The position numbers were made by a program, and so were the translations under genes. The notes beneath the pieces are model-generated. The model saw only the letters and a list, made by a program, of their open reading frames with translations. It was not told the origin of the DNA and did no database searches. DNA of 64,000 bases from Deltaproteobacteria bacterium (GTDB lineage: Bacteria; Myxococcota_A; UBA9160; UBA6930), in NCBI GenBank assembly GCA_016875395.1, contig VGRF01000001.1:95921-159920 (forward strand). Reading direction: 5' to 3'. Positions 13,219 to 54,960 of the stretch are shown here, piece by piece. Positions within the stretch are counted from its first letter, which is position 1. Every line of letters starts with the position of its first letter.

Positions 13219-13242
13219 GACTTCGTCTCCGACGCGCGCCTG

Positions 13243-29566: not shown

Positions 29567-31996
29567 ATGGCCAAAGCAGCGGCCGCACGCAAGACACGTG
29601 CGCGCGCGTCCTTCCTGGGCGCGCCGGGCGGCGGAGTTGCGCGCGAAGCAGGCGGCGTCCTGCTCGCGGGCTTCGTCGCGCTCGCAGCGGTCGCGCTTTG
29701 GAGCTACTCGCCGTCGGACGCGGTGCTCGAGTGGACCCACGTCGAGAACCGGGCGAGCGTCGCGGGCGCCACGGTTGCGGGCCTGCTGCACCGCTTCGCC
29801 GGAGTCGCCGCGTGGGGCGTGGTCATGGCGCTCGGTGCGGTCGCGGCATCGCTGCTCACGGCCGGACGCCTCGCGATTCCGCGCCATCTCTGGATCGCCG
29901 GCGGCGTCGCGTGGGGAGCGATCGCGACGCTCGCGTCCGTGCTGCCGATGCTCTCGCCGGAGCAGTTCGCGGGCGTGTCGGGTGGCTGGGTCGGCGGCAG
30001 CCTCGCGGGGATCGAGTCGCTGCTGATCAGCACCTACGGCGCCTTCCTCGTGAACGCGCTCTTGCTCGCGGTCGGGCTCGCGGGCTTCGCAGGTGTACCC
30101 GCGGGCGAAGCGCTCGCGGCGCTCGCGCGCGGCGGCGTGTCGGCTTCGCGCATCGCGGGGCGCGGCGCGCTCGCGTTCGGAGGCTGGGCGCACCGCATGG
30201 CGTTCGCGGGCGCCGACGCAGCGCAGCGCGGCTGGACGCAGCTCGAAGTCTGGCGCGAGCGGCGTGCGCGGCGCGAACGCGTCGAGGAGACGCGCGAGCA
30301 GCTCGCAGGTGCGGAGGAAGCGGCGGCGCCCCCGGTCGCGATCGCAGGCGAAGAGCCGCTCGCCCCCGCGGTTGCGGCAGAAACGCCGGCGCCCCCCGCG
30401 CGCCCGCGTGGCGCTGCGCCGGCGATCGTCGATCACGCGCGCGAGCGCAAGCGCGAGCCCGAGCAGGAGACGTTCACGTTCGCAGAGCCGACGTCGCTCG
30501 GGCCCTACGAGGCGCCCGACGTTGCGGAGACCTTCCAAGCGCCGCCCGAGAACGCGCGCAAGTACGACCGCGAGAGCTTGATCATGAACTCGCGGATCCT
30601 CGAGAAGAAGCTCGCGGACTTCGGCGTGATGGGCCGCGTGGTCACGGTGCACCCCGGTCCCGTGATCACGATGTACGAGTTCGAGCCGGCGCCGGGCGTC
30701 AAGGTCAACCGCATCACGAACCTGTCGGACGACCTCGCGCTCGCGCTGCGCGCGCTCTCGATCCGGATCATCGCGCCGATTCCGGGCAAGAGCGTCGTCG
30801 GCATCGAGGTGCCGAACGCGGAGCGCGAGACCGTCTACATCCGCGACTTGCTCGAGGCGCGCTCGTTCCGCGGCGCACCGAGCAAGCTCACGCTCGCGCT
30901 CGGCAAGGACATCTTCGGCAACCCCGTCGAGGCCGACCTCGCGACCATGCCGCACCTGCTCGTGGCCGGCGCCACCGGCACGGGCAAGAGCGTGTTCCTC
31001 AACTCGCTGCTGTGCTCGATCCTGGTCCGAGCCACGCCCGACGAAGTGAAGCTGCTGCTCGTCGACCCGAAGCTGCTCGAGCTCTCGATCTACGAGAAGA
31101 TTCCGCACCTGATCGCGGACGTCGTCACGAACCCGAAGCGCGCGTCGGCCGCGCTGCAGGGCATCGTGCTCAAGATGGAGGAGCGCTACCAGCAGATGGC
31201 GGCGCTCGGCGTCCGCAACATCGCGCAGTTCAACGCGCGCGTGGACGAGGCGAAGGCGGCGGGCATGAGGACGTACCGCCTGCGCCCGAAGCCCGGCGAG
31301 GCGGAGGGGCGCGAGGTCGAGTACGCGCGCATTCCGTACATCGTGGTCGTGATCGATGAGCTCGCGGACCTGATGGTCGTCTCCGCGAAGGATGTCGAGG
31401 AGTCGCTGCAGCGCCTCGCGCAGATGGCGCGCGCCTCGGGCATTCACCTCGTGCTGGCGACGCAGCGGCCGAGCGTCGACGTCCTCACCGGCATCATCAA
31501 GGCGAATTTTCCGGCGCGCATTTCGTTCCAAGTGTCGTCGCGCACCGACTCGCGGACGATTCTCGACCAAGGCGGCGCCGACCAACTGCTCGGACAAGGC
31601 GACATGCTGTTCCTCCCGCCCGGCACCTCGAAGCTCGCGCGCCTGCACGGCCCCTACGTGAGCGAGCGCGAGGTGACGAAGCTCGTCGAGCACCTGCGCC
31701 GCCAAGGCGCGCCGAAGTTCGACGAGGAGTTGTTACGGATCCCCGAGGAGGCGGAAGAGGGCGGCGAAGCGATCGATCCCGAGGACGTGGACGAGCACTA
31801 CGACATGGCCGTGCGCATCGTCGCCGAGACGCGCAACGCATCGATCTCGTATCTCCAGCGTCGGCTCAAGGTCGGGTACAACCGCGCCGCGCGCATGATC
31901 GAGCAGATGGAGCGCGAGGGCGTGGTCGGTCCGCAGATCGGCGTGCGCCCGCGCGAGGTGTTCATCGCGCCGATCGGCGAAGACGCCGATGCCTGA
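29567..31996 (+). CDS. ftsK: DNA translocase FtsK
   Basis: N-terminal TM helices, a Pro/Ala linker, Walker A GATGTGKS, Walker B VVVIDELADLM, and gamma domain SISYLQRRLKVGYNRAARMIEQME. Confidence 0.95.
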   Translation: MAKAAAARKTRARASFLGAPGGGVAREAGGVLLAGFVALAAVALWSYSPSDAVLEWTHVENRASVAGATVAGLLHRFAGVAAWGVVMALGAVAASLLTAGRLAIPRHLWIAGGVAWGAIATLASVLPMLSPEQFAGVSGGWVGGSLAGIESLLISTYGAFLVNALLLAVGLAGFAGVPAGEALAALARGGVSASRIAGRGALAFGGWAHRMAFAGADAAQRGWTQLEVWRERRARRERVEETREQLAGAEEAAAPPVAIAGEEPLAPAVAAETPAPPARPRGAAPAIVDHARERKREPEQETFTFAEPTSLGPYEAPDVAETFQAPPENARKYDRESLIMNSRILEKKLADFGVMGRVVTVHPGPVITMYEFEPAPGVKVNRITNLSDDLALALRALSIRIIAPIPGKSVVGIEVPNAERETVYIRDLLEARSFRGAPSKLTLALGKDIFGNPVEADLATMPHLLVAGATGTGKSVFLNSLLCSILVRATPDEVKLLLVDPKLLELSIYEKIPHLIADVVTNPKRASAALQGIVLKMEERYQQMAALGVRNIAQFNARVDEAKAAGMRTYRLRPKPGEAEGREVEYARIPYIVVVIDELADLMVVSAKDVEESLQRLAQMARASGIHLVLATQRPSVDVLTGIIKANFPARISFQVSSRTDSRTILDQGGADQLLGQGDMLFLPPGTSKLARLHGPYVSEREVTKLVEHLRRQGAPKFDEELLRIPEEAEEGGEAIDPEDVDEHYDMAVRIVAETRNASISYLQRRLKVGYNRAARMIEQMEREGVVGPQIGVRPREVFIAPIGEDADA

Positions 31997-32741
31997 CACG
32001 CGCACGCTGCGGGCCTGCTCGCTCGCCGTGATCCTCGCCGCGGTCAGCGCGAGCGCTGCAGGTGGCGACGACGCGGCGCAATCCGCGCCAGCACCGAAGC
32101 AAGCGCCCGCCAAGCCCGCGCAGCCTGCGCCGCCGAAGCCGGCCGCCCCCGCGGACTGCGCGGCTCAGATGACCGCGCGCGTACAGGCGCGTTACGACCG
32201 CATGCGCGACCTCGAGGCGCGCTTCACGCAGCGCACGATCAGCCAGCTCTCGCCCGCGGGCGACGTCTCGACCGGTCGCGTCGCGCTCGCGAAGCCCGGC
32301 AAGATGCGCTGGAGCTACGAGGCGCCGGAGCCGAGCCTGGTCGTGAGCGACGGCAGGACGCTGTGGATCTACGACGCCGTCGCGCGCGAAGCGCAGAAGC
32401 TCGCGGTCGGCGAGCAGTTCATGTCCGGCGCCGCGTTCCAGTTCTTGTTAGGCGACGGCCGCATCGCGGACAGCTTCACGGTGCGCGCTGCGGACTGCGG
32501 CGCGGCGCGGGTGAAGCTCGTGCTGACGCCGAAGGGCGATGCCACGTACGAGCACCTCGAGCTCGTCGTCGACGCAGCGAGCGCGGAGGCGCAAGCGACG
32601 TCCGTCGTGGACCTGTTCGGGAATCGCACCGAGGTCGAGTTCAGCGAGATTCGTTACGACCGCGCGCCCGGCGCGAGCGTGTTTCAGTTCACGCCCGAAC
32701 CCGGTGTGCGCGTGATCGAGCTCGACGCCCCTGCGAGCTGA
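31989..32741 (+). CDS. lolA: Outer-membrane lipoprotein carrier protein LolA
   Basis: Signal peptide, a Pro/Ala-rich spacer, then a LolA-like fold (RFTQRT.., GKMRWSYEAPEPSLVVSDGRTLWIYD). Conserved ftsK-lolA adjacency with an 8-nt overlap. Confidence 0.8.
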   Translation: MPDTRTLRACSLAVILAAVSASAAGGDDAAQSAPAPKQAPAKPAQPAPPKPAAPADCAAQMTARVQARYDRMRDLEARFTQRTISQLSPAGDVSTGRVALAKPGKMRWSYEAPEPSLVVSDGRTLWIYDAVAREAQKLAVGEQFMSGAAFQFLLGDGRIADSFTVRAADCGAARVKLVLTPKGDATYEHLELVVDAASAEAQATSVVDLFGNRTEVEFSEIRYDRAPGASVFQFTPEPGVRVIELDAPAS

Positions 32742-32943
32742 CACGCAGCTTTCTCGACACCGCGTCGGAAACTCGGCGCTCTCGATCCGTCCGCGCACGA
32801 CCTCGCATCTTCGAGTGGCACCCCGCGCGCAGGCCATCGGCAACTTCGCGCGGCGCGCTTGCCGCTGCGCGCGAGACGCGCGCTCGATGCGCTGCGGCTT
32901 TGCGCCGCGAGTGTTTGCAGATGAAGTTGCGCATCGCCGAGCG

Positions 32944-32972
32944 TTGACACTCGAAAACCGCATTCGTAGATT
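32944..32972 (+). promoter_or_regulatory. Sigma-70-like promoter TTGACA-N17-TAGATT about 280 nt upstream of mpa
   Basis: Consensus -35 at 32944-32949, an exact 17-nt spacer, and -10 TAGATT at 32967-32972, within an unusually AT-richer patch of a 509-bp intergenic region. Confidence 0.5.
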
Positions 32973-33250
32973 CGCCATTCACCGAAAGTCACGAAAAAAC
33001 GGGCACTTGGGCGAGCCTTCGCACTTCGAAGCGGAGCCCGGGCAAGCTCGTCGAAGGGACGCAGCGAGGCGCCGCGAGTGATTAGGGCGAGCGGCGCCTG
33101 CCGCGGAGTGCGGGACGCGATGACGAGGCGGAGCATCGACACCCAGAGGAGCGACGAGGCGCGACGCGAGCGTCGCGCGGCACATGCCTTGCACAACGCT
33201 GTGCCTACCGCCCGCGTCGTGCGCGCGGCCCTCGAAGTGGAGAGTTCGCG

Positions 33251-35080
33251 ATGAGCGAGTTCGACGAATCTGGACGCAGCAGCCGTGGATTCTTGCGCCG
33301 CTTCGGCCCCGGGCGCGATGGCGAGGCCGAGGGAGAGCGCGAGCGGGAGCGCACGATGGCGCGCTCGCTCCAGGAGGAGGCCGAGGATCTGCGCGAGGCG
33401 CTGCGCTTCTTCGGCGGCGATTCCGCCGAGTTCCGCCGCCGCCTCGATCGCATCCTCGCGGAGTACGAGGCGCAGCGCCGGCGCGCGACGTTGCTGCGCG
33501 ATCAGCTCGGCGACGCCGAGCGCCAGAACGAGAAGCTCGTCGCGACGCTGCAAGAGGCGAAGCAGCAGATCGAGCTGCTGAAGGAAGAAGTCGACAAGCT
33601 GTGCGCGCCGCCGAACGGCTACGGCGTGTTCATCCGCAGCAACAAGGACAGCACGGCGGAGATCATCGTCGACGGCAAGGCGATGCGCGTGAACGTGCAT
33701 CCGAACGTCGACACCACGACGTTCGAGGAGGGTCAGCTCGTCGTCCTCAACGAGGCGTTCAACGTGGTCGAGGGCTCGGGCTTCACGCAGCGCGGCGAGA
33801 TCGTCTCGATCTCCGAGATTCTCGGCGACGGCCGCGCGGTGGTGCTCGGGCACACCGACGACGAGCGCGTCGTGACGCTCGCTTCGCCGCTGCGCCGCGA
33901 GCGCCTCAAGGTCGGCGACAACCTGCTCGTCGACACGCGCACGCAGTACGCGTTCGAGAAGATGCCGAAGAGCGCGGTGGAAGAAGTCGCGCTCGAGGAA
34001 GTTCCGGACGTCACCTACGACCAGATCGGCGGCCTCGGCGAGCAGGTGCAGATCCTGCGCGACGCGATCGAGCTGCCGTATCTGCACCCCGACGTGTTCG
34101 CGGAGCACAAGCTCCATCCGCCGAAGGGCATCCTGCTCTACGGGCCGCCCGGCTGCGGCAAGACGCTGATCGCGAAGGCCGTCGCGAACTCGCTCGCGAA
34201 GCGCATCGAAGAGCGCAGCGGCCGCCAGACGCCCGCGTACTTCCTCAACGTGAAGGGCCCAGAGCTCCTCAACAAGTACGTCGGCGAGACCGAGCACAAG
34301 ATCCGCGAAGTCTTCAAGCGCGCGCGCGAGAAGGCGAGCGAAGACGTGCCGGTGGTGATCTTCTTCGACGAGATGGACTCGCTGTTCCGCATGCGCGGAT
34401 CGGGCATCTCCTCGGACATGGAGGCCACCGTCGTCGCGCAGTTCCTGAGCGAGATCGACGGCGTCGAGTCGCTGAAGAACGTGATCGTGATCGGCGCGAG
34501 CAACCGGCAGGACCTGATCGATCCCGCGGTGCTGCGCCCGGGCCGCCTCGACCTCAAGGTGAAGGTGAGCCGCCCGGACAAGCAGGCCGCGTTCGAGATC
34601 TTCACGAAGTACTTCACGCCGGATCTGCCCATGCACGCGTCGATGACGTCGCGCTACGGCAGCGACCTCACGAGGGCCTGCGAGCAGATGCTGCGCGAGA
34701 CGATCGAGAAGATGTACTCGACGGGCGACGACAACAAGTTCCTCGAGGTCACGTACGCGAAGGGCGAGCGCGAGATCTTCTACTTCAAGGACTTCTCGAG
34801 CGGCGCGATGATCGAGAACATCGTGGCGCGCGCGAAGAAGATGGCGGTGAAGCGGTTGATCGACGCGGGCGAGCGCGGCATCAAGATCGACGACCTGCAC
34901 ACGGCGGTGCGGGACGAGTTCAAGGAGAACGAGGATCTGCCCAACACCACCAATCCTGACGACTGGGCGCGCATCTCCGGCCGCAAGGGCGAGCGCATCA
35001 TCAACGTGCGCACGCTCATCACGGGAATCAGCCGGAAGGAACGCTCCATCGAGAACGTCGACTCCGGTCAGTACCTGTAA
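33251..35080 (+). CDS. mpa: Proteasome-associated AAA+ ATPase Mpa/ARC
   Basis: N-terminal coiled coil (LVATLQEAKQQIELLKEEVDKLCAPPNGYG), OB domains, Walker A GPPGCGKT, Walker B VVIFFDEMD, and the C-terminal GQYL proteasome-docking motif. Confidence 0.95.
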   Translation: MSEFDESGRSSRGFLRRFGPGRDGEAEGERERERTMARSLQEEAEDLREALRFFGGDSAEFRRRLDRILAEYEAQRRRATLLRDQLGDAERQNEKLVATLQEAKQQIELLKEEVDKLCAPPNGYGVFIRSNKDSTAEIIVDGKAMRVNVHPNVDTTTFEEGQLVVLNEAFNVVEGSGFTQRGEIVSISEILGDGRAVVLGHTDDERVVTLASPLRRERLKVGDNLLVDTRTQYAFEKMPKSAVEEVALEEVPDVTYDQIGGLGEQVQILRDAIELPYLHPDVFAEHKLHPPKGILLYGPPGCGKTLIAKAVANSLAKRIEERSGRQTPAYFLNVKGPELLNKYVGETEHKIREVFKRAREKASEDVPVVIFFDEMDSLFRMRGSGISSDMEATVVAQFLSEIDGVESLKNVIVIGASNRQDLIDPAVLRPGRLDLKVKVSRPDKQAAFEIFTKYFTPDLPMHASMTSRYGSDLTRACEQMLRETIEKMYSTGDDNKFLEVTYAKGEREIFYFKDFSSGAMIENIVARAKKMAVKRLIDAGERGIKIDDLHTAVRDEFKENEDLPNTTNPDDWARISGRKGERIINVRTLITGISRKERSIENVDSGQYL

Positions 35081-35125
35081 GCGGCGGGCGGCTCGTGCCC
35101 GTCACCCGGAGTTCGTGGAGCGCCG

Positions 35126-36610
35126 ATGGCGATACCGAAGGTGATGGGCACCGAGATCGAGTTCGGAATTGCGGTCCAGAACGACCGCGATTTCGACCCG
35201 ATCTCGAGCTGCGTGCTGCTGGTGAACGCGTACCGCGAAGATCGCCTCGCGGGCATCCTGTGGGACTACGACCAGGAGAATCCCCTCGCCGACGCGCGCG
35301 GCTTCCAGGTCGACGGCGAGAAGTACACGCCGAACCAGCAAGAGAACATCGCGCGCAACAAGACGCTCGAGAACGGCGCGCGTTACTACGTCGACCACGC
35401 GCACCCCGAGTACTCGTGCCCGGAAGTGACGAACCCGCGCGAGCTCGTGATTCACGAGAAGGCCGGCGAGCGCGTGATCGAAATCTCGCGCCGCGAGGCG
35501 ACGCAGCTGCTTCCCGCCGGAACGCAGCTGCTCGTGCACAAGAACAACAGCGACCACAAGGGCAACAGCTACGGCTCGCACGAGAACTACTTGATGGACC
35601 GGCGCACGTCCTTCAAGCAGATCGTCGAGCACCTGATGCCGTTCTTCGTGACGCGCCAGGTCTACGCGGGCGCGGGCAAGGTGGGCAGCGAGAACCGCGC
35701 GCATCCGTGTCTGTATCAGCTCTCGCAGCGCTCGGACTTCTTCGAGACGGAAGTGGCGCTCGACACGATGGTGAAGCGCCCGATCATCAACACGCGCGAC
35801 GAGCCGCACGCCGACCGCGAGAAGTATCGGCGGCTGCACGTGATCGTCGGCGACTCGAACATGAGCGAGTACACGATCTGGCTGCGCCAAGGTGTTACGG
35901 CGATCGTGCTCTCGATGATCGAGGACGGCGCGATCGACCGCGACCTCACGCTGCGCGATCCGGTTCGCGCGATCAAAGAGGTGTCGCACGACATCTCGCT
36001 GAAGCGAACGATCGAGCTCAACTCGGGCAAGAAGCTCAGCGCGGTGCAGCATCAGCGCGAGTTCTACGCGCTCGCGAAGAAGTATCAGGCTGCGCGCGAG
36101 CTGCCGGCTTGGGCGCCCGAGATCATGGATGCGTGGCTCGACGTGCTCGACGCGCTCGAGCGCGATCCGCGCGAGCTCGCCGATCGCCTCGACTGGGTGG
36201 CGAAGCAGGCGATGATCGAGGCGTTCCTGGAGCGCAAGGGGCTCGATTGGGAATCGCCGCAGGCGCAGATGCTCGACCTGCAGTTCCACGACGTGCGGCC
36301 CGAGAAGGGCCTCGCGTATCTGCTCGAGCGGCAAGGCAAGCTGCGCAGGCTCGTCAGCGACGACGAGATCGTGCGCGCGATCACCGAGCCGCCCGAGGAC
36401 ACGCGCGCGTACTTCCGGGGTCAGTGCCTCAAGCGCTACGGTGAAGCGGTGTTCGGCGTGAACTGGGATTCGATCTCGTTCGGCATCGGCGACGAGCCGA
36501 TCAAGCGAGTGATGATGGCGGAACCGCTCAAAGGCTCGATGAAGCACGTCGAAGAGTTGCTCGACCGCTCGCCGACGGCGGCCGAGCTCGTGCGCAACCT
36601 GCGCACCTGA
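35126..36610 (+). CDS. dop: Pup deamidase/depupylase Dop (Pup-ligase family)
   Basis: MGTEIEFGI, YVDHAHPEYS, GNSYGSHENYLM, QLSQRSDF, INTRDEPHAD and YFRGQCLKRYG closely parallel mycobacterial Dop as I recall it. Position between mpa and pup. Confidence 0.9.
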   Translation: MAIPKVMGTEIEFGIAVQNDRDFDPISSCVLLVNAYREDRLAGILWDYDQENPLADARGFQVDGEKYTPNQQENIARNKTLENGARYYVDHAHPEYSCPEVTNPRELVIHEKAGERVIEISRREATQLLPAGTQLLVHKNNSDHKGNSYGSHENYLMDRRTSFKQIVEHLMPFFVTRQVYAGAGKVGSENRAHPCLYQLSQRSDFFETEVALDTMVKRPIINTRDEPHADREKYRRLHVIVGDSNMSEYTIWLRQGVTAIVLSMIEDGAIDRDLTLRDPVRAIKEVSHDISLKRTIELNSGKKLSAVQHQREFYALAKKYQAARELPAWAPEIMDAWLDVLDALERDPRELADRLDWVAKQAMIEAFLERKGLDWESPQAQMLDLQFHDVRPEKGLAYLLERQGKLRRLVSDDEIVRAITEPPEDTRAYFRGQCLKRYGEAVFGVNWDSISFGIGDEPIKRVMMAEPLKGSMKHVEELLDRSPTAAELVRNLRT

Positions 36611-36627
36611 CCTCCGAGGAGAACACC

Positions 36628-36894
36628 ATGATTCGCCGAAAGCACTCTCTCGCGAACGACGCGGACCTCGCGGGCTTCGGCGTCGCGCACGCCGCCGAGC
36701 AGCAGCAGAAGCAAAAGCAGGGCGGCGGCGAGGGTGAGGGCGGCGCACCGTCCGGCGAAGGCGGCAAGAAGCTCGCCAAGAAGGGCGAGGCGCTGAAGGA
36801 AGAGATGGACTCGCTGATGGACGAGATCGACAACGTGCTCGAAGAGAACGCCGAGGAGTTCGTGAAGAACTACGTCCAGCGAGGCGGCGAGTAG
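36628..36894 (+). CDS. pup: Prokaryotic ubiquitin-like protein Pup (88 aa, C-terminal GGE)
   Basis: C-terminal half EEMDSLMDEIDNVLEENAEEFVKNYVQRGGE matches the Pup helix and GGE tail. GAGGAG lies 7 nt upstream of the ATG. Confidence 0.92.
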   Translation: MIRRKHSLANDADLAGFGVAHAAEQQQKQKQGGGEGEGGAPSGEGGKKLAKKGEALKEEMDSLMDEIDNVLEENAEEFVKNYVQRGGE

Positions 36895-36940
36895 GTAGGC
36901 CGGAACGCCGCGAGCGGCCGCGGGGGGCGAGCCGAGCGCG

Positions 36941-37759
36941 GTGTTCGAACACGCTGGAGGGGGCGTGCAGTTCTGGGATGGCTACAAGGGCTCGAGCTTC
37001 CTCGAGCTTCTCGCGACGGATCATCCGCAGCTGCGGCCTGATCTCGGCGGCTTGATCTCGCAGATCGGCGCTGCGCCGAACGTTCCGCACGGCACGACCT
37101 GCCTCGGTCTTCGCTACGGCGACGGCGCGCTCGTCGCGGCCGATCGGCTTGCGACGATGGGTTATCAGGTCGCGAGCCGCGAGATCGAGAAGCTCTGGGT
37201 CACGGACAACACCTCCGTGATGGCGATCGCCGGCGCCGCGGGCCCCGCGATCGAGATGGCGCGCCTGATCGCCGTGCAATTCGAGCACCGCGAGAAGATC
37301 GAGGGCGAGCCGCTCGAGCTCGAGGGCAAAGCCAACACGCTCTCGCAGCTGATCCGGCAGAACCTGCCCGCCGCGATGCAAGGCCTCGCCGTGGTGCCGC
37401 TGTTCGCGGGCTACGACGCGCGTCGTCGCACGGGCCGCGTCTGGAAGTACGAGATCACCGGCGGACGCTACGAAGAGCGCGAGTACGAGTGCGTCGGCTC
37501 GGGCTCGATCTTCGCGCGCGAGTCGCTGAAGAAGAGCTTCCGCGCCGAGTCCTCGCGCGCCGACGCCGTGCTGATGGCGATCGAGGCGCTGAAGGACGCC
37601 GCGGACGAAGACCGCGCGACCGGCGGAGTCGACCTCGAGCGCGGCATCTTCCCGCGCGTGAAGACCTGCACCGCGCGCGGCGTCGAGGACGTCTCCGACG
37701 ACGAGATCGCGCAGGCCTACCAGCAAGTGCTCGAACGCCGCCGCCGCCCGCGCGGTTGA
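36941..37759 (+). CDS. prcB: 20S proteasome beta subunit
   Basis: 51-aa propeptide ending ..NVPHG, followed by TTCLGL. Thr1, Asp17 (AADR) and Lys33 (REIEK) are all present. GSGS motif. Confidence 0.95.
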   Translation: MFEHAGGGVQFWDGYKGSSFLELLATDHPQLRPDLGGLISQIGAAPNVPHGTTCLGLRYGDGALVAADRLATMGYQVASREIEKLWVTDNTSVMAIAGAAGPAIEMARLIAVQFEHREKIEGEPLELEGKANTLSQLIRQNLPAAMQGLAVVPLFAGYDARRRTGRVWKYEITGGRYEEREYECVGSGSIFARESLKKSFRAESSRADAVLMAIEALKDAADEDRATGGVDLERGIFPRVKTCTARGVEDVSDDEIAQAYQQVLERRRRPRG

Positions 37760-37834
37760 GGCGTCGAGCCGACGCAACTCCAACATCGCCCGTAACAAGA
37801 GGACCACGCCCCGCCCGAACGCGGCTCGAGAAGC

Positions 37835-37900
37835 CGCAAGCCGACCGAGCGAGCCCGCTCGCTCCGTCGGCGCGCAGCGAGGCGAAGCCGAGCGGAGAAT
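37835..37900 (+). repeat. 13-bp-stem hairpin plus R2-core motif in the prcB-prcA spacer
   Basis: CCGACCGAGCGAG-CCCG-CTCGCTCCGTCGG (37841-37870, one mismatch), followed by GCGCGCAGCGAGGCGAAGCCGAGCGGAG. Confidence 0.7.
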
Positions 37901-37908
37901 CGTAAGAG

Positions 37909-38604
37909 ATGGCGTTTCCGTTCTACGTGAACCCGGAGCAGATGACCGCCGAGAAGGCGGAGTACGCGCGCAAAGGCATCGCGCGCGGGCGATCGATCGT
38001 GACGCTCGAGTTCGGCGGCGGCGTGCTGATGGTCGGCGAGAATCCGCTCAAGCTGCAGAAGGTCGGCGAGATCTACGACCGCATCGCATTCGCCGGCGTC
38101 GGCAAGTTCAGCGAGTTCGATCGGCTGCGGAAAATGGGCATCCAGTGGGCCGACGTGGAGGGCTTCCGCTTCAGCCGCGACGACGTGCGCGGCAAGGCAC
38201 TCGCGAACCTCTACTCGCAGGTGCTCGGCGAAGAGTTCACGCGTTCGATCAAGCCGTTCGAAGTGGAGATCGTGGTCGCGGAGGTCGGCGACGAGAATCT
38301 CGCGGGCCACGAGAAGAACGCGCTCTACAAGATCGGCTTCGACGGCACGATCCAGGACCAAGAAGGCTTCATCGTGATCGGCGGCAGCGTCGACAACCTC
38401 CAGAGCCACATGAACACGCACTTCCGCGCGGGCCTCTCGCTCGGCGCCGCGTTGAAGCTCGGCCGCGACGCGCTGCAGCGCGCAGAGAACGGAAACCCCG
38501 ACCTCGGCGCGCGGCACCTCGAAGTCGCGCTGCTCGATCGCGCGCGCACCGGCCGCAAGTTCCGCCGCCTCGCGCAGAACGAAATCTCCCAGCTCCTGTC
38601 CTGA
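37909..38604 (+). CDS. prcA: 20S proteasome alpha subunit
   Basis: MAFPFYVNPEQMTAEKAEYARKGIARGRSIV.. is alpha-subunit-like at the N-terminus. 231 aa, immediately after prcB. Confidence 0.92.
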   Translation: MAFPFYVNPEQMTAEKAEYARKGIARGRSIVTLEFGGGVLMVGENPLKLQKVGEIYDRIAFAGVGKFSEFDRLRKMGIQWADVEGFRFSRDDVRGKALANLYSQVLGEEFTRSIKPFEVEIVVAEVGDENLAGHEKNALYKIGFDGTIQDQEGFIVIGGSVDNLQSHMNTHFRAGLSLGAALKLGRDALQRAENGNPDLGARHLEVALLDRARTGRKFRRLAQNEISQLLS

Positions 38605-38679
38605 CGGCGCGCGCCCGCAGCGCAGCGGCAACTTCGCTGCGATGCTGTGCAAGTCGCCCGCGCGACGTGCCGATGAGCG

Positions 38680-40119
38680 ATGGGTACATTCGCCAAACCG
38701 GGGCGAGGGTCTGTGCAAAAGCGCATCTACGGCGTCGAGACCGAGTACGGAATCATCTTCACGCCCGAGGGGCGGAAGACGCTGCCCGTCGAGAAGGCGA
38801 TCCGCTTCCTGTTCGAGAAGCTGATCACCACCGAGCACTTCCTCAACGTCTTCCTCGAGAACGGCGCGCGCTTCTACCAGGACACTGGCTGCCACCCCGA
38901 ATACGCGACGCCCGAGTGCGCGTCGCCGCGCCAGCTGATCGTGTACGACAAGGCCGGCGAGCGCATTCTCGAAGAGCTGCAGGACTACGCCGAAGAAAAG
39001 ATCCGCGAGGAGCGCATCGCGGGGAAGCTCTCCATCTTCAAGAACAACACCGACTTCGTCGGCAACAGCTACGGCTGCCACGAGAACTACCTCGTCGACC
39101 GCGACGTCGACTTCTACTACCTCGCCGAGCAGCTGATCCCGTTCCTCGTGACGCGCCAGATCTACGCCGGCGCGGGCAAGGTGTTCCAGACGCAGGAAGG
39201 CGTGCATTACTGCGTCAGCCAGCGCGCGCAGCACATCTATCAGAAGATCAGCGGCACCACGACGAACGACCGCTCGATCATCAACACGCGCGACGAGCCC
39301 CACGCCGACCGCGAAAAGTTCCGCCGCCTGCACGTGATCGTGGGCGACTCGAACATGTCGGAGTACACGAACTTCCTGAAGATCGGCGCGTGCGCCGTCG
39401 TGCTCCAGATGATCGAGGACAACTACATCAACAAGGACTTCACCCTGCGCAATCCGGTGAAGGCCATCAAGGACATCTCGTACGACACGACTTGCAAGCG
39501 CAAGCTGCGCCTCGACAACGGGCGCGAGTATTCGCCGATCGAGATTCAGCGCGAGTACTGCGAGATGGCGCAGAAGTACGTCGAGCAATACCCGGTCTCC
39601 GACGAGCTGAAGCAGTCGGTCGTGATGTGGCAGCACGTGCTCGACTGCCTCGACACCGACCCCGACAAGCTCGATCGCCAGATCGACTGGGTGATCAAGC
39701 GGCGCCTGATCGAGAACTGGATCCAGGGCCACGACTCGCGCTGGAGCGATCCGCGCGTGTTCATGCTCGATCTGCAGTACCACGATCTGCGCATGAACCG
39801 CGGGCTCTACTACTTGTTGGAGCGCAAGGGCGCGGTGGAGCGAATTCTCACCGACGAAGAAGTGGACAAGGCGAAGACCGAGCCGCCGCCGGATACGCGC
39901 GCGAAGATGCGAGGCGAGTTCATCAAGCTCGCGCGCCAGAACGGGATCCAATACGACCTCGACTGGTCGAACATCCGCCTCGGCAACCTGCTGAACGTGC
40001 GCGTGATCTGTAACAACCCGTTCGAGACGGATACCGAGAAGGTCGCCGAGCTCGTGCGCACGATTCAGAAGACGAACCTCAGGAAGACATCGTTGAGCAA
40101 GCTCGTGATTCAGAGCTGA
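38680..40119 (+). CDS. pafA: Pup--protein ligase PafA
   Basis: RIYGVETEYGI, GCHPEYATPEC, GNSYGCHENYLV, CVSQRAQHI, INTRDEPHAD and DWVIKRRL parallel mycobacterial PafA. The exact start is uncertain (ATG 38680). Confidence 0.9.
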   Translation: MGTFAKPGRGSVQKRIYGVETEYGIIFTPEGRKTLPVEKAIRFLFEKLITTEHFLNVFLENGARFYQDTGCHPEYATPECASPRQLIVYDKAGERILEELQDYAEEKIREERIAGKLSIFKNNTDFVGNSYGCHENYLVDRDVDFYYLAEQLIPFLVTRQIYAGAGKVFQTQEGVHYCVSQRAQHIYQKISGTTTNDRSIINTRDEPHADREKFRRLHVIVGDSNMSEYTNFLKIGACAVVLQMIEDNYINKDFTLRNPVKAIKDISYDTTCKRKLRLDNGREYSPIEIQREYCEMAQKYVEQYPVSDELKQSVVMWQHVLDCLDTDPDKLDRQIDWVIKRRLIENWIQGHDSRWSDPRVFMLDLQYHDLRMNRGLYYLLERKGAVERILTDEEVDKAKTEPPPDTRAKMRGEFIKLARQNGIQYDLDWSNIRLGNLLNVRVICNNPFETDTEKVAELVRTIQKTNLRKTSLSKLVIQS

Positions 40120-40158
40120 TGCGCGATTCCGAGTACTGACGGTCTTCGAGGTTCGCTT

Positions 40159-40280
40159 TTCTCCTCGTTGACTCCGCAAACCGCTCCGCGGACTCCGCGG
40201 TTTGCTGCGCGCTTCGCTTGCGGCCTCGGCCGACTCGCTTGGGAGTAGCGTTCGGCTTCGGGGTTGATCTGGCGGCTCGG
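40159..40280 (+). repeat. R2 copy c: structured 3'-flank repeat
   Basis: TTGACTCCG, hairpin CAAACCGC[TCCGCGGACTCC]GCGGTTTG (40177-40204), then CTGCGCGCTTCGCTTGCGGCCTCGGCCGAC..GCTTGGGAGTAGCGTTCGG..GATCTGGCGGCTCGG. Begins 40 nt after the pafA stop. Confidence 0.8.
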
Positions 40281-40600
40281 CGAACGCGTCGCGCGGTTGA
40301 AAGACTCACCGAGGCGGGCATCCATTGCAGCGGCTCCGCCGTTGCATCGAAGCGGAGTTGGTCGCGCGCATCACGCGTACGCAAGTTGCGTGCATCGCTT
40401 GCGCATGCGCGGTTGCGCTCCGACGGAGCGTGGCGGCTGGCTGCGTGATGGCTCGCACCGACGGAGTGCGTGAGCGGGCGCGGGTCGCAGTGGGGCGGCA
40501 GAAAAGTCGCGCTGAGCGAGCAGCGAGCGCTCAACTCGCGGCGCATCGCGCCGATACGGAACGAGGCCGGAGCGCTGCGCCTTCACTCCGAGAGGATTTC

Positions 40601-41635
40601 ATGCTCGACTCGCTGATGGGGTGGCTCTCGAACGATCTCGCCATCGATCTCGGCACGGCGAACACGCTCGTGTACGCGAAGGGCAAAGGTCTCATCTGTT
40701 CGGAGCCGTCCGTGGTGGCGGTGACGTCGGATCCGACGGGGCGCGGCGACAAGGTGCTCGCGGTCGGCCACGAAGCGAAGGAGATGCTCGGGCGCACGCC
40801 GGGCTCGATTCGCGCGGTGCGCCCGATCAAGGACGGCGTGATCGCCGACTTCGAGATCACCGAAGCGATGCTCCGCTACTTCATCGCGCGCGCCAACAAC
40901 AAGCGCCGCCTGGCGCGCCCGCGCATCGTGATCTGCGTGCCGCCCTGCATCACCAGCGTCGAGAAGCGCGCCGTGCGCGAGTCCGCGATGTCGGCCGGCG
41001 CGCGCGAAGTGTTCTTGATCGAGGAGCCGATGGCCGCGGCGATCGGCGCCGGCCTCGACGTGACCGCACCTACGGGCAACATGGTCGTCGACATCGGCGG
41101 CGGCACCACGGACGTCGCCGTGATCTCGCTCTCCGGCATCGTCTGCTCGCGCTCGATCCGCTGCGGCGGCGACGCGATGGACGAGGCCGTCATCAACTAC
41201 GTGAAGCGCAAGTACAACATGCTGATCGGCGAGCGCACCGCGGAGTCGGTGAAGATGGCGATCGGCACCGCTTCGCCGACGGCGAAGACCGAGACGATGG
41301 AGATCAAGGGCCGCGACCTCGTCGCCGGCATCCCGAAGGTCGTCGTCACCACCAGCGAAGAGATCCGCGAGGCGCTGCAGGAGCCGCTCGCGCAGATCGT
41401 CGAGACCGTGCACCTCACGCTCGAGCGCACGCCCCCGGAGCTCGCGGCCGACATCGTCGATCGCGGCATCATGCTCGTCGGCGGCGGCTCGATGCTGAAG
41501 GATCTCGACACCGTGCTGCGCCAGGAGACGAAGCTGCCGATTCTGCGCAGCGAGGATCCGTTCACGGCGGTCGTCTACGGCGCTGGCAGAGCGCTGGACA
41601 ACCTGGATCTGCTGAAAGAGGTCGCGATTCCGTAG
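40601..41635 (+). CDS. mreB: Rod-shape-determining actin homologue MreB
   Basis: The real start is ATG 40601, after GAGAGG. Motifs: DLGTANTLVY, IEEPMAAAIGAGL, VVDIGGGTTDVAVISL, GIMLVGGGSML. Confidence 0.95.
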   Translation: MLDSLMGWLSNDLAIDLGTANTLVYAKGKGLICSEPSVVAVTSDPTGRGDKVLAVGHEAKEMLGRTPGSIRAVRPIKDGVIADFEITEAMLRYFIARANNKRRLARPRIVICVPPCITSVEKRAVRESAMSAGAREVFLIEEPMAAAIGAGLDVTAPTGNMVVDIGGGTTDVAVISLSGIVCSRSIRCGGDAMDEAVINYVKRKYNMLIGERTAESVKMAIGTASPTAKTETMEIKGRDLVAGIPKVVVTTSEEIREALQEPLAQIVETVHLTLERTPPELAADIVDRGIMLVGGGSMLKDLDTVLRQETKLPILRSEDPFTAVVYGAGRALDNLDLLKEVAIP

Positions 41636-44700: not shown

Positions 44701-46284
44701 TCAGCGCTGCGCGCTGCGCGCGACCGCCTCGGCGCGGCGATCGAGCGCGCGCTGAGCGGCCTTGCGCAGCGGCTCGTCGCGCGACTGCAGTGCCTCGGCC
44801 AGCAGCGTGACGGCCTGGTCGCCGGGCACGCTGGAGAGCGCCGTCGCCGCGGCCACCTTCACGTCTTTCAGCCAGCGCCCCGTGAGGCCCGCCTTGCGGT
44901 GCATCAGCGAGCCGAAGATCACGTTCGCTTCGGGCCGCCCGAGGCGGCCGAGCGCGCGCACGATCTCCTTCGCCAGCTCGATGTCCTTCGTTTCGAGCGC
45001 GCGCTCGAGCGCGTGGCCGAGCGGCGCCACCGCTTTCGGGCTCGCGGTTCCGGCGAGGTGCTGCACCGAAGAGATCACGACGCTGCGCTCGCTGCGCAGG
45101 CCGCGCGCGAGGCCCGCCACCGCGTCCTCCGTGCCGATGCGCACGAGCGCGCGCGCAGCCTCCTCGCGCAGCACCGGATCAGCGCCGACCGCGAGGTCCG
45201 AGAGGCGCGGCACGGCGGCGGGATGCTGCAGCATGCCGAGCACGTGCGCGGCGCTGCGCGCGATCGCGGTATCGGGGCGATCGAGGCGATTCAACAGCTC
45301 CGGGGCAGCGCGCTCGCCGAGCGCGAGCAGCAACGGAATGATGCGCTCGCGCTGAATCGGCTCGGGGTAGGCGGGCATGCGATCGAGCACCGCCGCGGCC
45401 GCGGGCTCGCCCACGAGCGCGATGACCTGCGCGGCGCGCACCTGCTCGGTTCCGCTGCCGCGTGCGGTGCGCTCCAGCAAGTCGCTCAGCGCTGGCCCCA
45501 TCACGAGCGGCGTGAGGAAGCCGCGCGCGCTCTCGCTGAGGCGCTGCTCCTTCGTCTCCACGTGCTCGGCGAGCACGCCGATCAGGCGAAACATCACGTC
45601 CGCGTCGCGCGCGCGCTCGGCTTCCGTGACCGCGCGGCGCATGCCGTCGATGTAGGAGCTCGGGCTCGCGCACTCGTCGAGCTCGCTCAGCAGCTCGTCG
45701 AGCGGCGAGAGCGCCGGCTCGTTGCCGAGCGGCTCGGTGTCCGAATCGGGATCCGCGAGCGCCTGCGGCTGCGGCGGCGGGGCCGCCGCCTGCGCCACCG
45801 GCGAGACGTGCGGCGGTGTCTCCGCTGCGGCGGGTGCTTCCGGCTCCGCGGCGATGCCGATCGGCACCCACGCGCGCAGGCGCTCGACGAACGCGTCGCC
45901 GCGCAGCCCGCGCGCGTTCGCGTCGGTCAGCAGGTGGGCGAAGCCTGCGAGCGCGTCGCCGTCCATCTCGGGGTCGAAGCGCAGCACGCGGAGCTGGCGC
46001 AGGCGGAGCTCGCCGAGGATCTCGCTGAGGCGATCGTGCTTCAGCAACCCGCTCGCGCCTTCCTCGCGGAAGCCGTCGGCCTCGATTTGCAGCGCGAGGG
46101 GGCCCGTGCGGGCGAGGTCGCTGCGCCAAGTGCGCAGGCAGCGCTCGAATGCGGCGGTGAGCTTCGGGTCGCCCGGCACGAGCAGCGTGCGCGCCTTCAC
46201 GATGCTCGCGAGCTCGAGCAGCAGCACCGCGAGCTCGGGCGCAGTTCGGCCCGCAGATGCGGCGGCGCTCGCTGTGCGCGTCAT
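44701..46284 (-). CDS. HEAT-repeat protein (527 aa), function unknown
   Basis: The C-terminal half has repeated ..A(V/A)P.L...L...D..(V/L)R..AA.AL..(I/L)G units (HEAT/PBS-lyase-like). Pro/Ala-rich central linker. First gene of the ruvX-mltG operon. Confidence 0.65.
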   Translation of the reverse strand: MTRTASAAASAGRTAPELAVLLLELASIVKARTLLVPGDPKLTAAFERCLRTWRSDLARTGPLALQIEADGFREEGASGLLKHDRLSEILGELRLRQLRVLRFDPEMDGDALAGFAHLLTDANARGLRGDAFVERLRAWVPIGIAAEPEAPAAAETPPHVSPVAQAAAPPPQPQALADPDSDTEPLGNEPALSPLDELLSELDECASPSSYIDGMRRAVTEAERARDADVMFRLIGVLAEHVETKEQRLSESARGFLTPLVMGPALSDLLERTARGSGTEQVRAAQVIALVGEPAAAAVLDRMPAYPEPIQRERIIPLLLALGERAAPELLNRLDRPDTAIARSAAHVLGMLQHPAAVPRLSDLAVGADPVLREEAARALVRIGTEDAVAGLARGLRSERSVVISSVQHLAGTASPKAVAPLGHALERALETKDIELAKEIVRALGRLGRPEANVIFGSLMHRKAGLTGRWLKDVKVAAATALSSVPGDQAVTLLAEALQSRDEPLRKAAQRALDRRAEAVARSAQR

Positions 46285-46343
46285 CGTTCCCCCCGAAACG
46301 TCGCGAAGCCGCGCGCATTCTGACGCGAGATTGCGACGCGCGC

Positions 46344-46952
46344 TTGACGCATCGCTTCTCCGTCGGAGAAACTCGCGCGATCGAGTTCCCCCACTCGGTC
46401 TCCCCGAAAATCCTCCGCGGTCCCGAAGCGGAGTCCATCATCGAAACGAAAAGTGGAGATCGCCCGGCGCAGCCCCGGGCGTTCGTTGCGCTCGCGCTCG
46501 CGACGGGGCTCGGCATCGGCTTCGCGCCGTTCGCGCCGGGAACTTTCGGCTCGCTGCTGGCTGCAGCGATTTTCGTGTTACTTTCGCAGTCGATCTGGGG
46601 CGTGATCGGCGTGTGGGGGGCGAGCGTGGGGCTCGGAGTCTGGGCGGCCGGCGAGGCGCAGCGCGCATTCGGGCGCGAGGACGACTCGCGCATCGTGATC
46701 GACGAGATCGCGGGCCAGCTGCTCGCGCTCGCGCCGCTGCTCGCGTTGCCCGCAGCGAGCCGCGGAAATTTCTTCGCGCTTGTGACCGCATTCGTCGCAT
46801 TCAGGCTGTTCGATATCTGGAAACCGGGGCCGGTCGGCGCCGCAGAGAAACGATTCCAAGGAGGGCTCGGCGTGATGGCGGACGATCTCGTCGCAGGCGC
46901 GCTCGCGGCTGCGGTCGTAGCCGCGCTGGTCGCGGGCGGGGTGCTCGCGTGA
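46344..46952 (+). CDS. pgpA: Phosphatidylglycerophosphatase A
   Basis: GLGIGFAPFAPGTFGS, IVIDEIAGQL, FRLFDIWKPGP, GGLGVMADDLVAG. The start is uncertain: TTG 46344 is proposed because ATG 46257 of the track ORF would overlap the divergent HEAT gene. Confidence 0.75.
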   Translation: MTHRFSVGETRAIEFPHSVSPKILRGPEAESIIETKSGDRPAQPRAFVALALATGLGIGFAPFAPGTFGSLLAAAIFVLLSQSIWGVIGVWGASVGLGVWAAGEAQRAFGREDDSRIVIDEIAGQLLALAPLLALPAASRGNFFALVTAFVAFRLFDIWKPGPVGAAEKRFQGGLGVMADDLVAGALAAAVVAALVAGGVLA

Positions 46953-48229
46953 AGGCCGAGGTCCTCACGATCGGCGACGAGCTGCTGCGCGGCGAGATCG
47001 TCGACTCGAACAAGTCGTTTCTCTCCGAGAAGCTGCTCGGCATCGAGGTCGAGACGCGCTTTCACGCCTCGGTGAACGACGACCCCGCCGACATGCGCGA
47101 CGCGTTTCTGCGCGCGGCGGATCGCAGCGAGATCGTGCTCGTCTCGGGCGGCCTCGGTCCGACGCGGGACGACCTCACGGTGGAGGTGCTCGCGCAGACG
47201 TTTGGGCGCGCGCTCGTGCAGCACGAGCCTTCGCTGCGCCGCATCGAGGAGTTCTTCGCACGCAACCAGCGCGCGATGTCGCCGAGCAACGCGAAGCAGG
47301 CGCTCGTGCCGGAGGGCTGCGAGGTGCTGCCGAATCCGGTGGGCACCGCGCCGGGCTGCATGCTCGACGTCGGGCGCGCCGTGTTCTTCTGCATGCCCGG
47401 AGTGCCGCGCGAGCTGTATCGCATGATGGAAGAGCAGGTGCTGCCGCGCGTCGCTGCGCGGCTCGGCGGAAGCCGCGGCGTGATGCGCGCGGCGCTGCTG
47501 CGCACCTTCGGGCTCGGCGAGTCGAACCTCGAGGACACGCTCGCCGATGTCGGCCGCGAGGAGGGCGTGATCCTCGGCTTCCGCACCGCGTTTCCCGACA
47601 ACTTCCTGCGCCCCGTCGCGCGCGCGAAGACGGCCCCGGAAGCCGACGCGAAGCTCGCGCGCGCGAGCGCAGCGATCGAGGCGAAGCTCGGCCCGCTCGT
47701 CTACACGCGCGGCGATGAGACGATGGAGTCGGTCGTGGGCCGCATGCTCGCGGAGCGCGGCCTCACGCTCGCGACCGCCGAGAGCTGCACCGGCGGTCTG
47801 ATCGGCGCGCGCCTCACCGCGGTGGCCGGCTCCTCGCGCTACTACCGCGGCGGCGTGGTCGCCTACGCGAACGAGGCGAAGCGCGACTTGTTGGGCGTGT
47901 CCGAGGCGCTGCTGCGCGAGCACGGCGCCGTGTCCGCGCCGGTTGCGCGCGCGATGGCGGAAGGCGCCCGCGCGCGGCTCGGCGCCGACCTCGCACTCGC
48001 CACGACAGGCATCTCGGGCCCCGACGGCGGCACGCCAGAGAAGCCCGTGGGTCTCGTGTGGATCGCGCTCGCGTCGAAGGACGGAACCGAGGCAGAGCAG
48101 ATGATCTTCCCGTTCGACCGCGAGCGGCACCGCGTGATCACGGCGCAAACCGCGCTCGACTGGGTGCGCCGCTCGCTGCTCGGTCTCCCGCGCTTGGTGC
48201 CGCGCTACGTGCGGGGAGCGACGCGATGA
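46949..48229 (+). CDS. cinA: CinA family protein (MoCF-like domain + PncC NMN deamidase domain)
   Basis: VKAEVLTIGDELLRGEIVDSN.., GGLGPTRDD, AESCTGGL. The GTG start overlaps the pgpA stop (GTGA). The 835-aa track ORF is an upstream artefact. Confidence 0.9.
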   Translation: MKAEVLTIGDELLRGEIVDSNKSFLSEKLLGIEVETRFHASVNDDPADMRDAFLRAADRSEIVLVSGGLGPTRDDLTVEVLAQTFGRALVQHEPSLRRIEEFFARNQRAMSPSNAKQALVPEGCEVLPNPVGTAPGCMLDVGRAVFFCMPGVPRELYRMMEEQVLPRVAARLGGSRGVMRAALLRTFGLGESNLEDTLADVGREEGVILGFRTAFPDNFLRPVARAKTAPEADAKLARASAAIEAKLGPLVYTRGDETMESVVGRMLAERGLTLATAESCTGGLIGARLTAVAGSSRYYRGGVVAYANEAKRDLLGVSEALLREHGAVSAPVARAMAEGARARLGADLALATTGISGPDGGTPEKPVGLVWIALASKDGTEAEQMIFPFDRERHRVITAQTALDWVRRSLLGLPRLVPRYVRGATR

Positions 48230-48858
48230 GCGTGCAATGGGAGCGCGAGTCGCTCGGGCCGTCGGCCCGAAAGAACGGCGCTGCCGTGCGCGCGTTCTTC
48301 GCGATCGGGCTCGGGGGGCAGCTCCGCGAGAGCACTGCGGCGCTCGCGCGCGACCTCGCGGCGCGGGTGGGCGGCGAGGGCGTGCGCTGGACTGCGCCGG
48401 ACTCGTATCACCTCACGCTGCGCTTCCTCGGCAACGTGCCGAGCGCCGACGTCGCGCTGCTCGCCGAGCGTGCGCAGGACGCGCTCGCGCCGTGCGCGCC
48501 GTTCGTGCTCACGCTCGGCCCCGCGCTCGCGTTCCCGTCTGCGCGCCAGCCGCGCGTGATCGCGCTCGCGGCGCAACCGGAGGGCCCGCTCGCGGATCTC
48601 GCCGCGCGGCTCGAGAAGGTCGCGGTCGAGCTCGGCCTGGCGCCCGAGGAGCACGCCTTCCGCGCGCACCTCACGATCGGCCGCGTGCGCGCGCGCCGCG
48701 CGCCGAAGCTCGATGCGCCCGCGCCCGCCGGCGCACTCGAAGTGCGCGAGGTCGTGCTGTTCCGCACCGACCTCGCGCGCGAAGGCGCCCAGTACACGCC
48801 GCTCGCGACGCTGCCCCTCGGCGCGTCCGCGGCTCCGCTCTCACCCGGTTCCAACTGA
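48226..48858 (+). CDS. thpR: RNA 2',3'-cyclic phosphodiesterase ThpR/LigT (2H family)
   Basis: Two HxT motifs (YHLTLRFLG and AHLTIGR). The ATG overlaps the cinA stop (ATGA). Confidence 0.85.
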
Positions 48859-48880
48859 GAAAACACCAAGGAGCAACTCA

Positions 48881-49942
<1,062 letters not shown>

Positions 49943-54768: not shown

Positions 54769-54960
54769 AACCCGTCTCAGAATTCCGGACCGAGCCCGGC
54801 GCGCGGGTTTGGCCGGCTGGCGAGGCGCGCGAGCGAAGGCGTATCAAAAGATACTTCGAGCGAAGCGCAAGCGGAGCGCGCAGCGAGCCGGAGGCGAGCG
54901 GAGTCGAAAGCGAGAGCAAGCCAGCCGGGCAAAGACGCGCGCCCGGCGAAGGGAGGAATT

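Follow-up and report, generated by a model that had tools for sequence, protein, structure and literature searches.

A canonical Pup-proteasome locus on the chromosome of an uncultured diderm bacterium, most likely of the Myxococcota class UBA9160

How does a complete set of Pup-proteasome genes come to lie among the outer-membrane and housekeeping genes of a bacterium that is not an actinobacterium? Work on pupylation and bacterial proteasomes has been confined almost wholly to Actinobacteria, where both matter for the virulence and stress survival of Mycobacterium tuberculosis. The question is raised by a six-gene locus, mpa-dop-pup-prcB-prcA-pafA, in a 64,000-nt stretch of contig VGRF01000001.1, which was analysed as a whole and is called the window here. 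An earlier note, made from the letters of this DNA, had proposed that the locus encodes the whole system in a diderm, non-actinobacterial host. Our analysis indicates with high confidence that it is a canonical Pup-proteasome operon on the chromosome of an uncultured diderm member of the Myxococcota, most likely of class UBA9160. This reading is carried by the identities of the genes, the conservation of their motifs and catalytic residues, the type of host, synteny over multiple species and host-like codon usage. The system is complete and apparently functional. It is also a standard system, already annotated automatically, with no new mechanism or component. What goes beyond the earlier note, and in part beyond published work, is a stable, host-adapted core locus of a large diderm lineage, a highly conserved ligase, and an alternation between GGE and GGQ at the end of Pup.

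Identity of the six genes

All coordinates are positions within the window. The locus spans 33251–40119, and its six co-directional open reading frames, all on the plus strand, are identical to those given in the earlier note. They are listed here with pafA at its likely start; the longest pafA frame covers 38680–40119.

33251–35080, plus strand: mpa/arc, proteasomal AAA+ ATPase, 609 residues, with a coiled-coil region, two OB domains, an AAA module and GQYL
35126–36610, plus strand: dop, Pup depupylase/deamidase, 494 residues
36628–36894, plus strand: pup, prokaryotic ubiquitin-like protein, 88 residues, GGE end
36941–37759, plus strand: prcB, 20S proteasome beta subunit, 272 residues, GTG start
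37909–38604, plus strand: prcA, 20S proteasome alpha subunit, 231 residues
38713–40119, plus strand: pafA, Pup--protein ligase, likely GTG start, 468 residues (479 from ATG 38680, the longest frame)

With longest-frame models the intergenic gaps are 45, 17, 46, 149 and 75 bp, as reported before. The window has the order mpa-dop-pup-prcB-prcA-pafA, and so do essentially all of the related loci that are complete. The pafA gene of M. tuberculosis stands apart from prcBA and shares an operon with pafBC. The window differs in that pafA directly follows prcA and pafBC is not in the window, as the earlier note had pointed out. The order itself is the one described as 'rigidly conserved' among pupylating organisms (Barandun et al., PMC3511204). 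It is canonical and no new architecture; intervening genes are a feature of the mycobacterial locus.

To assign families, we used Pfam and NCBIfam equivalog profiles with their curated cut-offs, and all six proteins pass the equivalog cut-offs. In Pfam, gene 1 matches AAA, Prot_ATP_ID_OB_N and Prot_ATP_ID_OB_C, genes 2 and 6 match Pup_ligase, gene 3 matches Pup, and genes 4 and 5 match Proteasome. The five proteins queried against solved structures (PrcA was not among them) gave essentially full-length matches to actinobacterial Mpa, Dop, Pup, PrcB and PafA. Profiles and structures thus agree with the assignments made from the letters, and every motif that had been quoted for Mpa, Pup, PrcB, Dop and PafA is found in the translations.

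Mpa scored 748 bits on the pup_AAA model TIGR03689 (cut-off 505) and carries a Walker A motif (GPPGCGKT, residue 298), a Walker B motif (IFFDEMD, residue 370) and the C-terminal GQYL. Its match to M. tuberculosis Mpa (7px9, 666 bits) covers M. tuberculosis residues 30–609, up to the terminal GQYL, a stretch that we take to include the M. tuberculosis coiled-coil segment. The start at ATG 33251 is backed by an N-terminus, MSEFD/MSEHD...GR(K/R)GF, that is kept in relatives. Residues 1–55 (33251–33410) read MSEFDES...GRSSRGFLRRFGPGR in the window, and the consensus of the relatives is MSE(F/H)D...GR(K/R)GFVRDVMRRI. This segment differs from the M. tuberculosis N-terminus, is conserved within the clade and lies upstream of the part that can be aligned with M. 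tuberculosis Mpa.

Pup (PF05639, 68.6 bits; TIGR03687, 61.2 bits, cut-off 41) has 88 residues and ends in RGGE. Its residues 23–88 align to M. tuberculosis Pup (3m9d), and the C-terminal halves of the two are near-identical (...EENAEEFVKNYVQRGGE in the window, ...EENAEDFVRAYVQKGGQ/E in M. tuberculosis). The window protein has about 22 additional N-terminal residues. This long form is plausible, because the upstream Met is kept in position in most relatives and no start codon is present in the window at the site matching the M. tuberculosis start. Since Pup ends in GGE, it would be ready for ligation without deamidation, a step that would be needed for the GGQ end of M. tuberculosis Pup but not here.

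PrcB scored 281 bits on TIGR03690 (cut-off 192) and has an HG|TT processing site at residue 50, which would leave a propeptide of 51 residues, together with Thr1, Asp17 and Lys33. In the alignment with the Rhodococcus beta subunit (1q5r, 224 bits) the processing site is in register, and among the aligned Rhodococcus and M. tuberculosis beta subunits are mature chains whose first residue falls opposite T52; the Thr1 processing site is the same as the mycobacterial one. PrcA scored 278 bits on TIGR03691 (cut-off 139), with residues 1–230 of 231 aligned to profile positions 1–228 of 229.

The two Pup-ligase paralogues separate reciprocally, each scoring best on its own family in both profiles and structures. 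Dop reached 561.4 bits on TIGR03688 (cut-off 492.3) and 403.4 on the PafA model. It contains GSHENYLM, QLSQRSDF and YFRGQC, and it matches Acidothermus cellulolyticus Dop (4b0r) at 500.6 bits, continuously over query residues 5–491 including the extra N-terminal loop, versus 257 bits against PafA. PafA reached 553.5 bits on TIGR03686 (cut-off 551.3) and 412.6 on the Dop model. It contains GCHENYLV and CVSQRAQH, and its best match in the PDB is Corynebacterium glutamicum PafA (4b0t, 362 bits), aligned from the N-terminus; against Dop it scored 328 bits, and Dop structures can be aligned to it only from residue 54 onwards. GVETEYG lies at residues 18–24, and a candidate catalytic residue, Asp68 in the numbering of the 479-residue frame (FYQDTGCHPEY), falls opposite the C. 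glutamicum Asp for which the 4bjr chain has Asn. The Gly of GxExE and the Asp are 82 residues apart in Dop (Gly8 to Asp90) and 50 in PafA, which is without the Dop-specific loop. PafA is otherwise collinear with soluble C. glutamicum PafA, with short gaps only and no large insertion. The full-length alignments to C. glutamicum PafA (4B0T/4BJR) and A. cellulolyticus Dop (4B0R/5LRT) include GxExE, the catalytic Asp, HENYL and RDEPHAD.

The earlier note had told the paralogues apart in part by GSHENYLM and GCHENYLV. This pair is no true discriminator, because Acidothermus Dop carries GCHENYLM; the assignments nevertheless stand. The start of PafA also calls for a correction. Most homologues have 468 residues, and the only start conserved in relatives is a GTG giving VQKRIYG, whose window equivalent is GTG 38713, with GAGGG just upstream. 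PafA therefore probably has 468 residues from this codon, in which case the prcA-pafA gap becomes 108 bp and not 75 bp.

Host, synteny and conservation

The window (G+C ~70%) encodes LolA (31989–32741), Lgt (20276–21025, minus strand) and BamD/YfiO (60611–61390, minus strand), and a Porin_5 protein (6617–8005) with the C-terminus ...VVVKF. Together these genes confirm a diderm envelope, and the diderm host that had been deduced from them, with a porin ending in Phe, is borne out.

To place the locus among relatives, we scanned species-representative genomes and found at least 572 stretches encoding a relative of the window PafA. The comparisons below use the best 80 loci of these at least 572, ranked by PafA similarity (L001–L080; PafA 83–99% identical), with synteny established by tblastn of the window proteins against the 80 loci. 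All 80 come from metagenome-assembled genomes (MAGs) of Myxococcota or 'Deltaproteobacteria', a few with obviously wrong NCBI labels, in agreement with the earlier claim of a non-actinobacterial host. The record titles of L001, L010, L014, L023, L024, L040, L049, L051, L062 and L080 carry the label Spirochaetales, Spirochaetaceae, Geobacter or Gammaproteobacteria; on syntenic MAGs these are probably mislabels of the same uncultured lineage. We know of no cultured member of this lineage. The host most likely belongs to the Myxococcota, in GTDB Myxococcota_A class UBA9160. L063 is the UBA6930 genome, and several of the loci come from Danish MFD MAGs, of the kind used in a 2026 preprint that puts family UBA6930 within class UBA9160 (proposed 'Vahlivitia') of GTDB Myxococcota_A. 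The preprint makes no mention of proteasomes.

The six genes sit in the same place, ssb-(plsC)-ftsK-lolA-[six genes]-mreB...mltG-ruvX, in almost all loci whose length allows the arrangement to be seen. The lolA-mpa and pafA-mreB adjacencies occur in ~60 independent assemblies, among them three complete chromosomes of 5.0–6.2 Mb (OZ245002.1, OZ245817.1 and OZ252299.1). The locus is stably inherited over hundreds of related species and no sporadic oddity.

Codon usage, which the earlier note had suggested comparing with that of the flanks, is host-like in both G+C at third codon positions (GC3) and synonymous choice. The GC3 of the six genes (0.89–0.94) equals that of the flanks. Their bulk G+C is 0.63–0.68 versus ~0.70 in the flanks, and since GC3 does not differ, the difference sits in codon positions 1 and 2, that is, in amino-acid composition. 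In their fit to the synonymous-codon preferences of the flanks, the six genes equal or exceed MreB, RecA and AlaS, and PafA and Mpa are at the top of the window. Taken with the synteny, this points to an old, vertically inherited part of the core genome of the lineage and not to a recent gain.

Functional motifs are kept across the related loci. The C-terminal GQYL of Mpa is present in 62 of 65 loci, with GQYV in the other 3, and HG|TT, D17 and K33 of PrcB are intact in 69 of 73. The C-terminus of Pup is GGE in 44 loci and GGQ in 25. The retention of these motifs across the clade argues for purifying selection on function. The two ends of Pup show that deamidation-dependent and deamidation-independent forms coexist in one lineage, and indicate that within this syntenic clade the need for deamidation by Dop has switched repeatedly among close relatives. 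Their coexistence fits a Dop that is kept as both depupylase and deamidase.

Overall conservation differs widely between the proteins. Median identities to the window protein across related loci are:

PafA: 89% (range 83–99)
MreB: 82%
Dop: 74%
Mpa: 73%
Pup: 66%
PrcB: 60%
FtsK: 59%
PrcA: 58%
LolA: 48%

PafA is unusually constrained, above MreB and far above Dop and the proteasome subunits, although ranking the loci by PafA may inflate the gap slightly.

One locus looks different. In L004 (CAVQTC010000002.1, ~5245–10166), whose PafA is 95% identical, tblastn with Mpa and Dop gives no match better than 47% and 45%, and that of Dop sits on the pafA gene. In this assembly mpa and dop may therefore be disrupted, masked or rearranged.

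Origin and role of the system

How the system would work can be modelled by homology on those of M. tuberculosis, C. glutamicum and Acidothermus. Pup would be synthesised with its C-terminal Glu in place (GGE), with no deamidation, and PafA with ATP would activate the gamma-carboxylate of this Glu for ligation to the lysine side chains of targets. The Mpa hexamer would bind Pup through its N-terminal coiled coils and thread the disordered Pup N-terminus through its OB and AAA rings, while GQYL would dock in the alpha ring of a PrcA7-PrcB7-PrcB7-PrcA7 core. In that core, autocatalytic loss of the 51-residue propeptide at HG|TT would expose the Thr1 sites at which the substrate is degraded. Dop would remove the tag by depupylation and, in sister species with GGQ-Pup, would also act as the activating deamidase.

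The same six components make up the system of M. tuberculosis and M. smegmatis. The window host differs from these in being diderm. The Pup-ligase superfamily is very diverse in metagenomes: clustering at 50% identity leaves 2,132 representatives at E <= 1e-30. Beyond the Myxococcota group, the PafA clusters closest to the window protein bear the names Gemmatimonadota (74% identity), Entotheonellia (66%) and Nitrospinota (65%), followed by Limnocylindrales of the Chloroflexota (63%) and Candidatus Moduliflexus (61%). The best-scoring representative among those labelled actinobacterial, from Ilumatobacteraceae (Acidimicrobiia), is 48% identical. In a neighbour-joining tree, a crude one in which branches are long, only a few tips are labelled and support values are lacking, and which cannot fix the direction or number of ancient transfers, window PafA falls in a separate clade of non-actinobacterial MAG lineages only, apart from the C. 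glutamicum PafA branch. Window Dop groups with Acidothermus Dop, so that both paralogues lie in their expected groups.

Did the six genes nevertheless arrive recently, as an island from, for example, Actinobacteria or Nitrospirota? The lower bulk G+C of the locus would fit such an event, and published work leans towards a horizontal spread of the system out of Actinobacteria into other phyla (PMC7947786, PMC3511204). The G+C deficit is confined to codon positions 1 and 2, however, with flank-like GC3, and synonymous codon choice matches the host at least as closely as it does in housekeeping genes. In addition, the locus occupies one site, between lolA and mreB, in dozens of species that have diverged to 50–60% identity in FtsK and 33–55% in LolA, and the best-scoring PafA among those labelled actinobacterial is just 48% identical. 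Any transfer must have come before the clade radiated. On codon usage, site and distance, we rejected recent transfer, which we hold to be very improbable. To a chimera, in which assembly or binning joined an actinobacterial proteasome fragment to a Gram-negative contig, we give next to no weight. The source is probably a metagenome assembly, the gene-position index has no entry identical to PafA, and several related MAGs bear plainly wrong NCBI labels (Spirochaetaceae, Geobacter, Gammaproteobacteria). Against this, both junctions recur in the ~60 genomes, assembled independently in different projects and including the three complete chromosomes, composition and codon usage are continuous over the junctions, and the proteins are just ~48–50% identical to actinobacterial ones. 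The recurrent junctions and the continuous composition led us to reject a chimera, and the linkage of the locus to outer-membrane genes, which the earlier note had wished to see checked, is real.

A different doubt concerns function. Degradation-independent roles of pupylation exist in Actinobacteria, and C. glutamicum is not known to have proteasome genes. The window might likewise encode a proteasome-independent or degenerate pupylation of the Corynebacterium, Plesiocystis or Rhodopirellula type, with a regulatory or membrane-protein role and a 20S particle that is inactive or unrelated. In Plesiocystis pacifica, the first deltaproteobacterial case to be described, and in Rhodopirellula, the Pup ligase is membrane-anchored, with a four-transmembrane insertion and no linked proteasome genes (PMC2588565). 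In the window, by contrast, pup and pafA flank prcB and prcA, Thr1, Asp17, Lys33 and the processing site are intact, Mpa retains GQYL, PafA is of the collinear, soluble type, and these features are conserved across the clade. A proteasome-independent system is thus unlikely, and the canonical, degradative Pup-proteasome remains our reading, beside which additional degradation-independent functions may exist. Plesiocystis, too, belongs to the Myxococcota as broadly defined, with Pup and a Pup-ligase homologue, but the linked prcBA and mpa and the soluble-type PafA make the window locus a different variant from that earlier 'deltaproteobacteria' case.

'Actinomycete-like' proteasome loci were reportedly described in Leptospirillum, of the Nitrospirota, by De Mot in 2007. 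Iyer et al. listed Pup systems in nitrospirae, deltaproteobacteria, planctomycetes and verrucomicrobia in 2008 (PMC2588565), and a recent survey called occurrences in other phyla 'very sporadic… in a few draft genomes' (PMC7947786). By the literature, the locus resembles that of Leptospirillum and other Nitrospirota, where a complete arc-dop-pup-prcB-prcA-pafA locus stands in the same order in a Gram-negative host and GGE-type Pup also occurs (PMC3511204, PMC2588565). The phyla differ, and Leptospirillum has two divergent copies of the system (PMC3511204) versus the one copy seen here. The diderm setting that the earlier note had stressed is therefore real, but its novelty was overstated: diderm cases have been known since 2007–2008 (PMC2588565), and the related proteins from MAGs already bear the names 'Pup--protein ligase' or 'PafA2 family' at NCBI. 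Our literature search found no paper linking pupylation or bacterial proteasomes with Myxococcota.

Several points weigh against the reading of a functional operon in a UBA9160 host. We infer every biochemical activity, transcription as an operon and the physiological role. The equivalog score of PafA is marginal, 2 bits over the cut-off. The operon is deduced from gene spacing, and the promoter and terminator scans came out near chance save for one weak promoter match. Among the window genes scanned there is no pafBC (WYL) gene for a PafBC-type regulator and no gene for a PAC2-type assembly chaperone. The class placement, finally, is indirect, drawn from PafA similarity and synteny with named MAGs and not from a marker-gene phylogeny.

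The locus shows that a complete and strongly conserved Pup-proteasome belongs to the stable core of a large, uncultured diderm lineage that is widespread in the environment. A wider proposal is tentative, and we consider it rather doubtful: that the locus is an ancestral, lineage-wide and possibly indispensable module of class UBA9160, fixed between ftsK-lolA and mreB, with PafA constrained above MreB and belonging to a multi-phylum PafA clade with Gemmatimonadota, Entotheonellia, Nitrospinota, Chloroflexota and Moduliflexus, apart from the Corynebacterium branch. If true, it would revise the view of the range and origin of pupylation as 'Actinobacteria plus a few sporadic draft genomes'. In any case, the clade offers a defined setting for two questions: the task of a Pup-proteasome in a cell that has an outer membrane and a periplasm, and the cause of the strong constraint on its ligase.

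Spacers and flanking genes

Two features outside the coding regions were recorded in and near the locus:

32944–32972, plus strand: sigma-70-like promoter match TTGACA-17-TAGATT, ~280 nt upstream of mpa (consensus scan, weak)
37833–37895, plus strand: hairpin and 26-nt dispersed repeat within the 149-bp prcB-prcA spacer

The promoter match comes from a consensus scan of 32500–40800, which gave 2 sites versus 0.5 expected; in the same interval terminator-like sites were at chance level and all on the minus strand. The lolA-mpa spacer folds no more stably than shuffled sequences (z = +0.19), and an Rfam search of the whole window gave one tRNA only, at 63769–63840, with nothing in or near the locus.

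The prcB-prcA spacer is unusually long, 149 bp versus a median of ~21 nt in relatives. It contains a GC-rich hairpin (arms 37833–37854 and 37857–37878; -34.6 kcal/mol, z = -1.98) and, adjoining it, a 26-nt repeat, GCGCGCAGCGAGGCGAAGCCGAGCGG, at 37870–37895. A second copy lies in the alaS-ispG spacer at 54876–54901 (0.01 chance matches expected), and a partial copy lies in the pstB-phoU spacer at 12446–12463. Related genomes carry many copies on both strands and in arrays, among them L024 (47–75 and 11446–11473), L060 (11401–11427) and L004 (8937–9208), the last with a five-copy array inside its own prcB-prcA spacer. The element is probably a small dispersed repeat of the REP (repetitive extragenic palindrome) kind, and it probably accounts for the length of the gap.

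Downstream of pafA, a 481-nt spacer leads to mreB (40601–41635, true start ~40601). The earlier note had described a repeat and an mreB leader here. A GC-rich hairpin does lie at ~40176–40205, and ~100 nt at the end of the spacer, upstream of mreB, are conserved, but the spacer folds no more stably than shuffles (z = -0.20), which leaves the hairpin statistically unsupported, and the ~100 nt are kept only in the closest relatives.

On both sides the flanks are ordinary chromosomal housekeeping genes. Upstream are a class II ribonucleotide reductase, a Pho-type cluster, ETF-QO, Lgt, an ECF sigma/anti-sigma pair, RadC, PilZ, SSB, an acyltransferase, FtsK and LolA. Downstream are MreB, a PhyH-family dioxygenase, MltG/YceG, RuvX, PgpA, CinA, LigT, RecA, a PilT-like ATPase, AlaS, IspG and BamD/YfiO.

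Within these flanks, a phosphate-regulon-like cluster at 4447–16900 comprises an OmpR-type response regulator, a PAS histidine kinase, the Porin_5 porin, PstS-PstC-PstA-PstB and PhoU; at its end, on the opposite strand, Ppx/GppA fused to a histidine-phosphatase domain is followed by polyphosphate kinase. A classic pgpA-cinA-ligT(thpR)-recA arrangement occupies 46257–49942. In it the longest cinA frame (to 48229) runs into that of ligT (from 48058), so that the start of ligT is probably further downstream.

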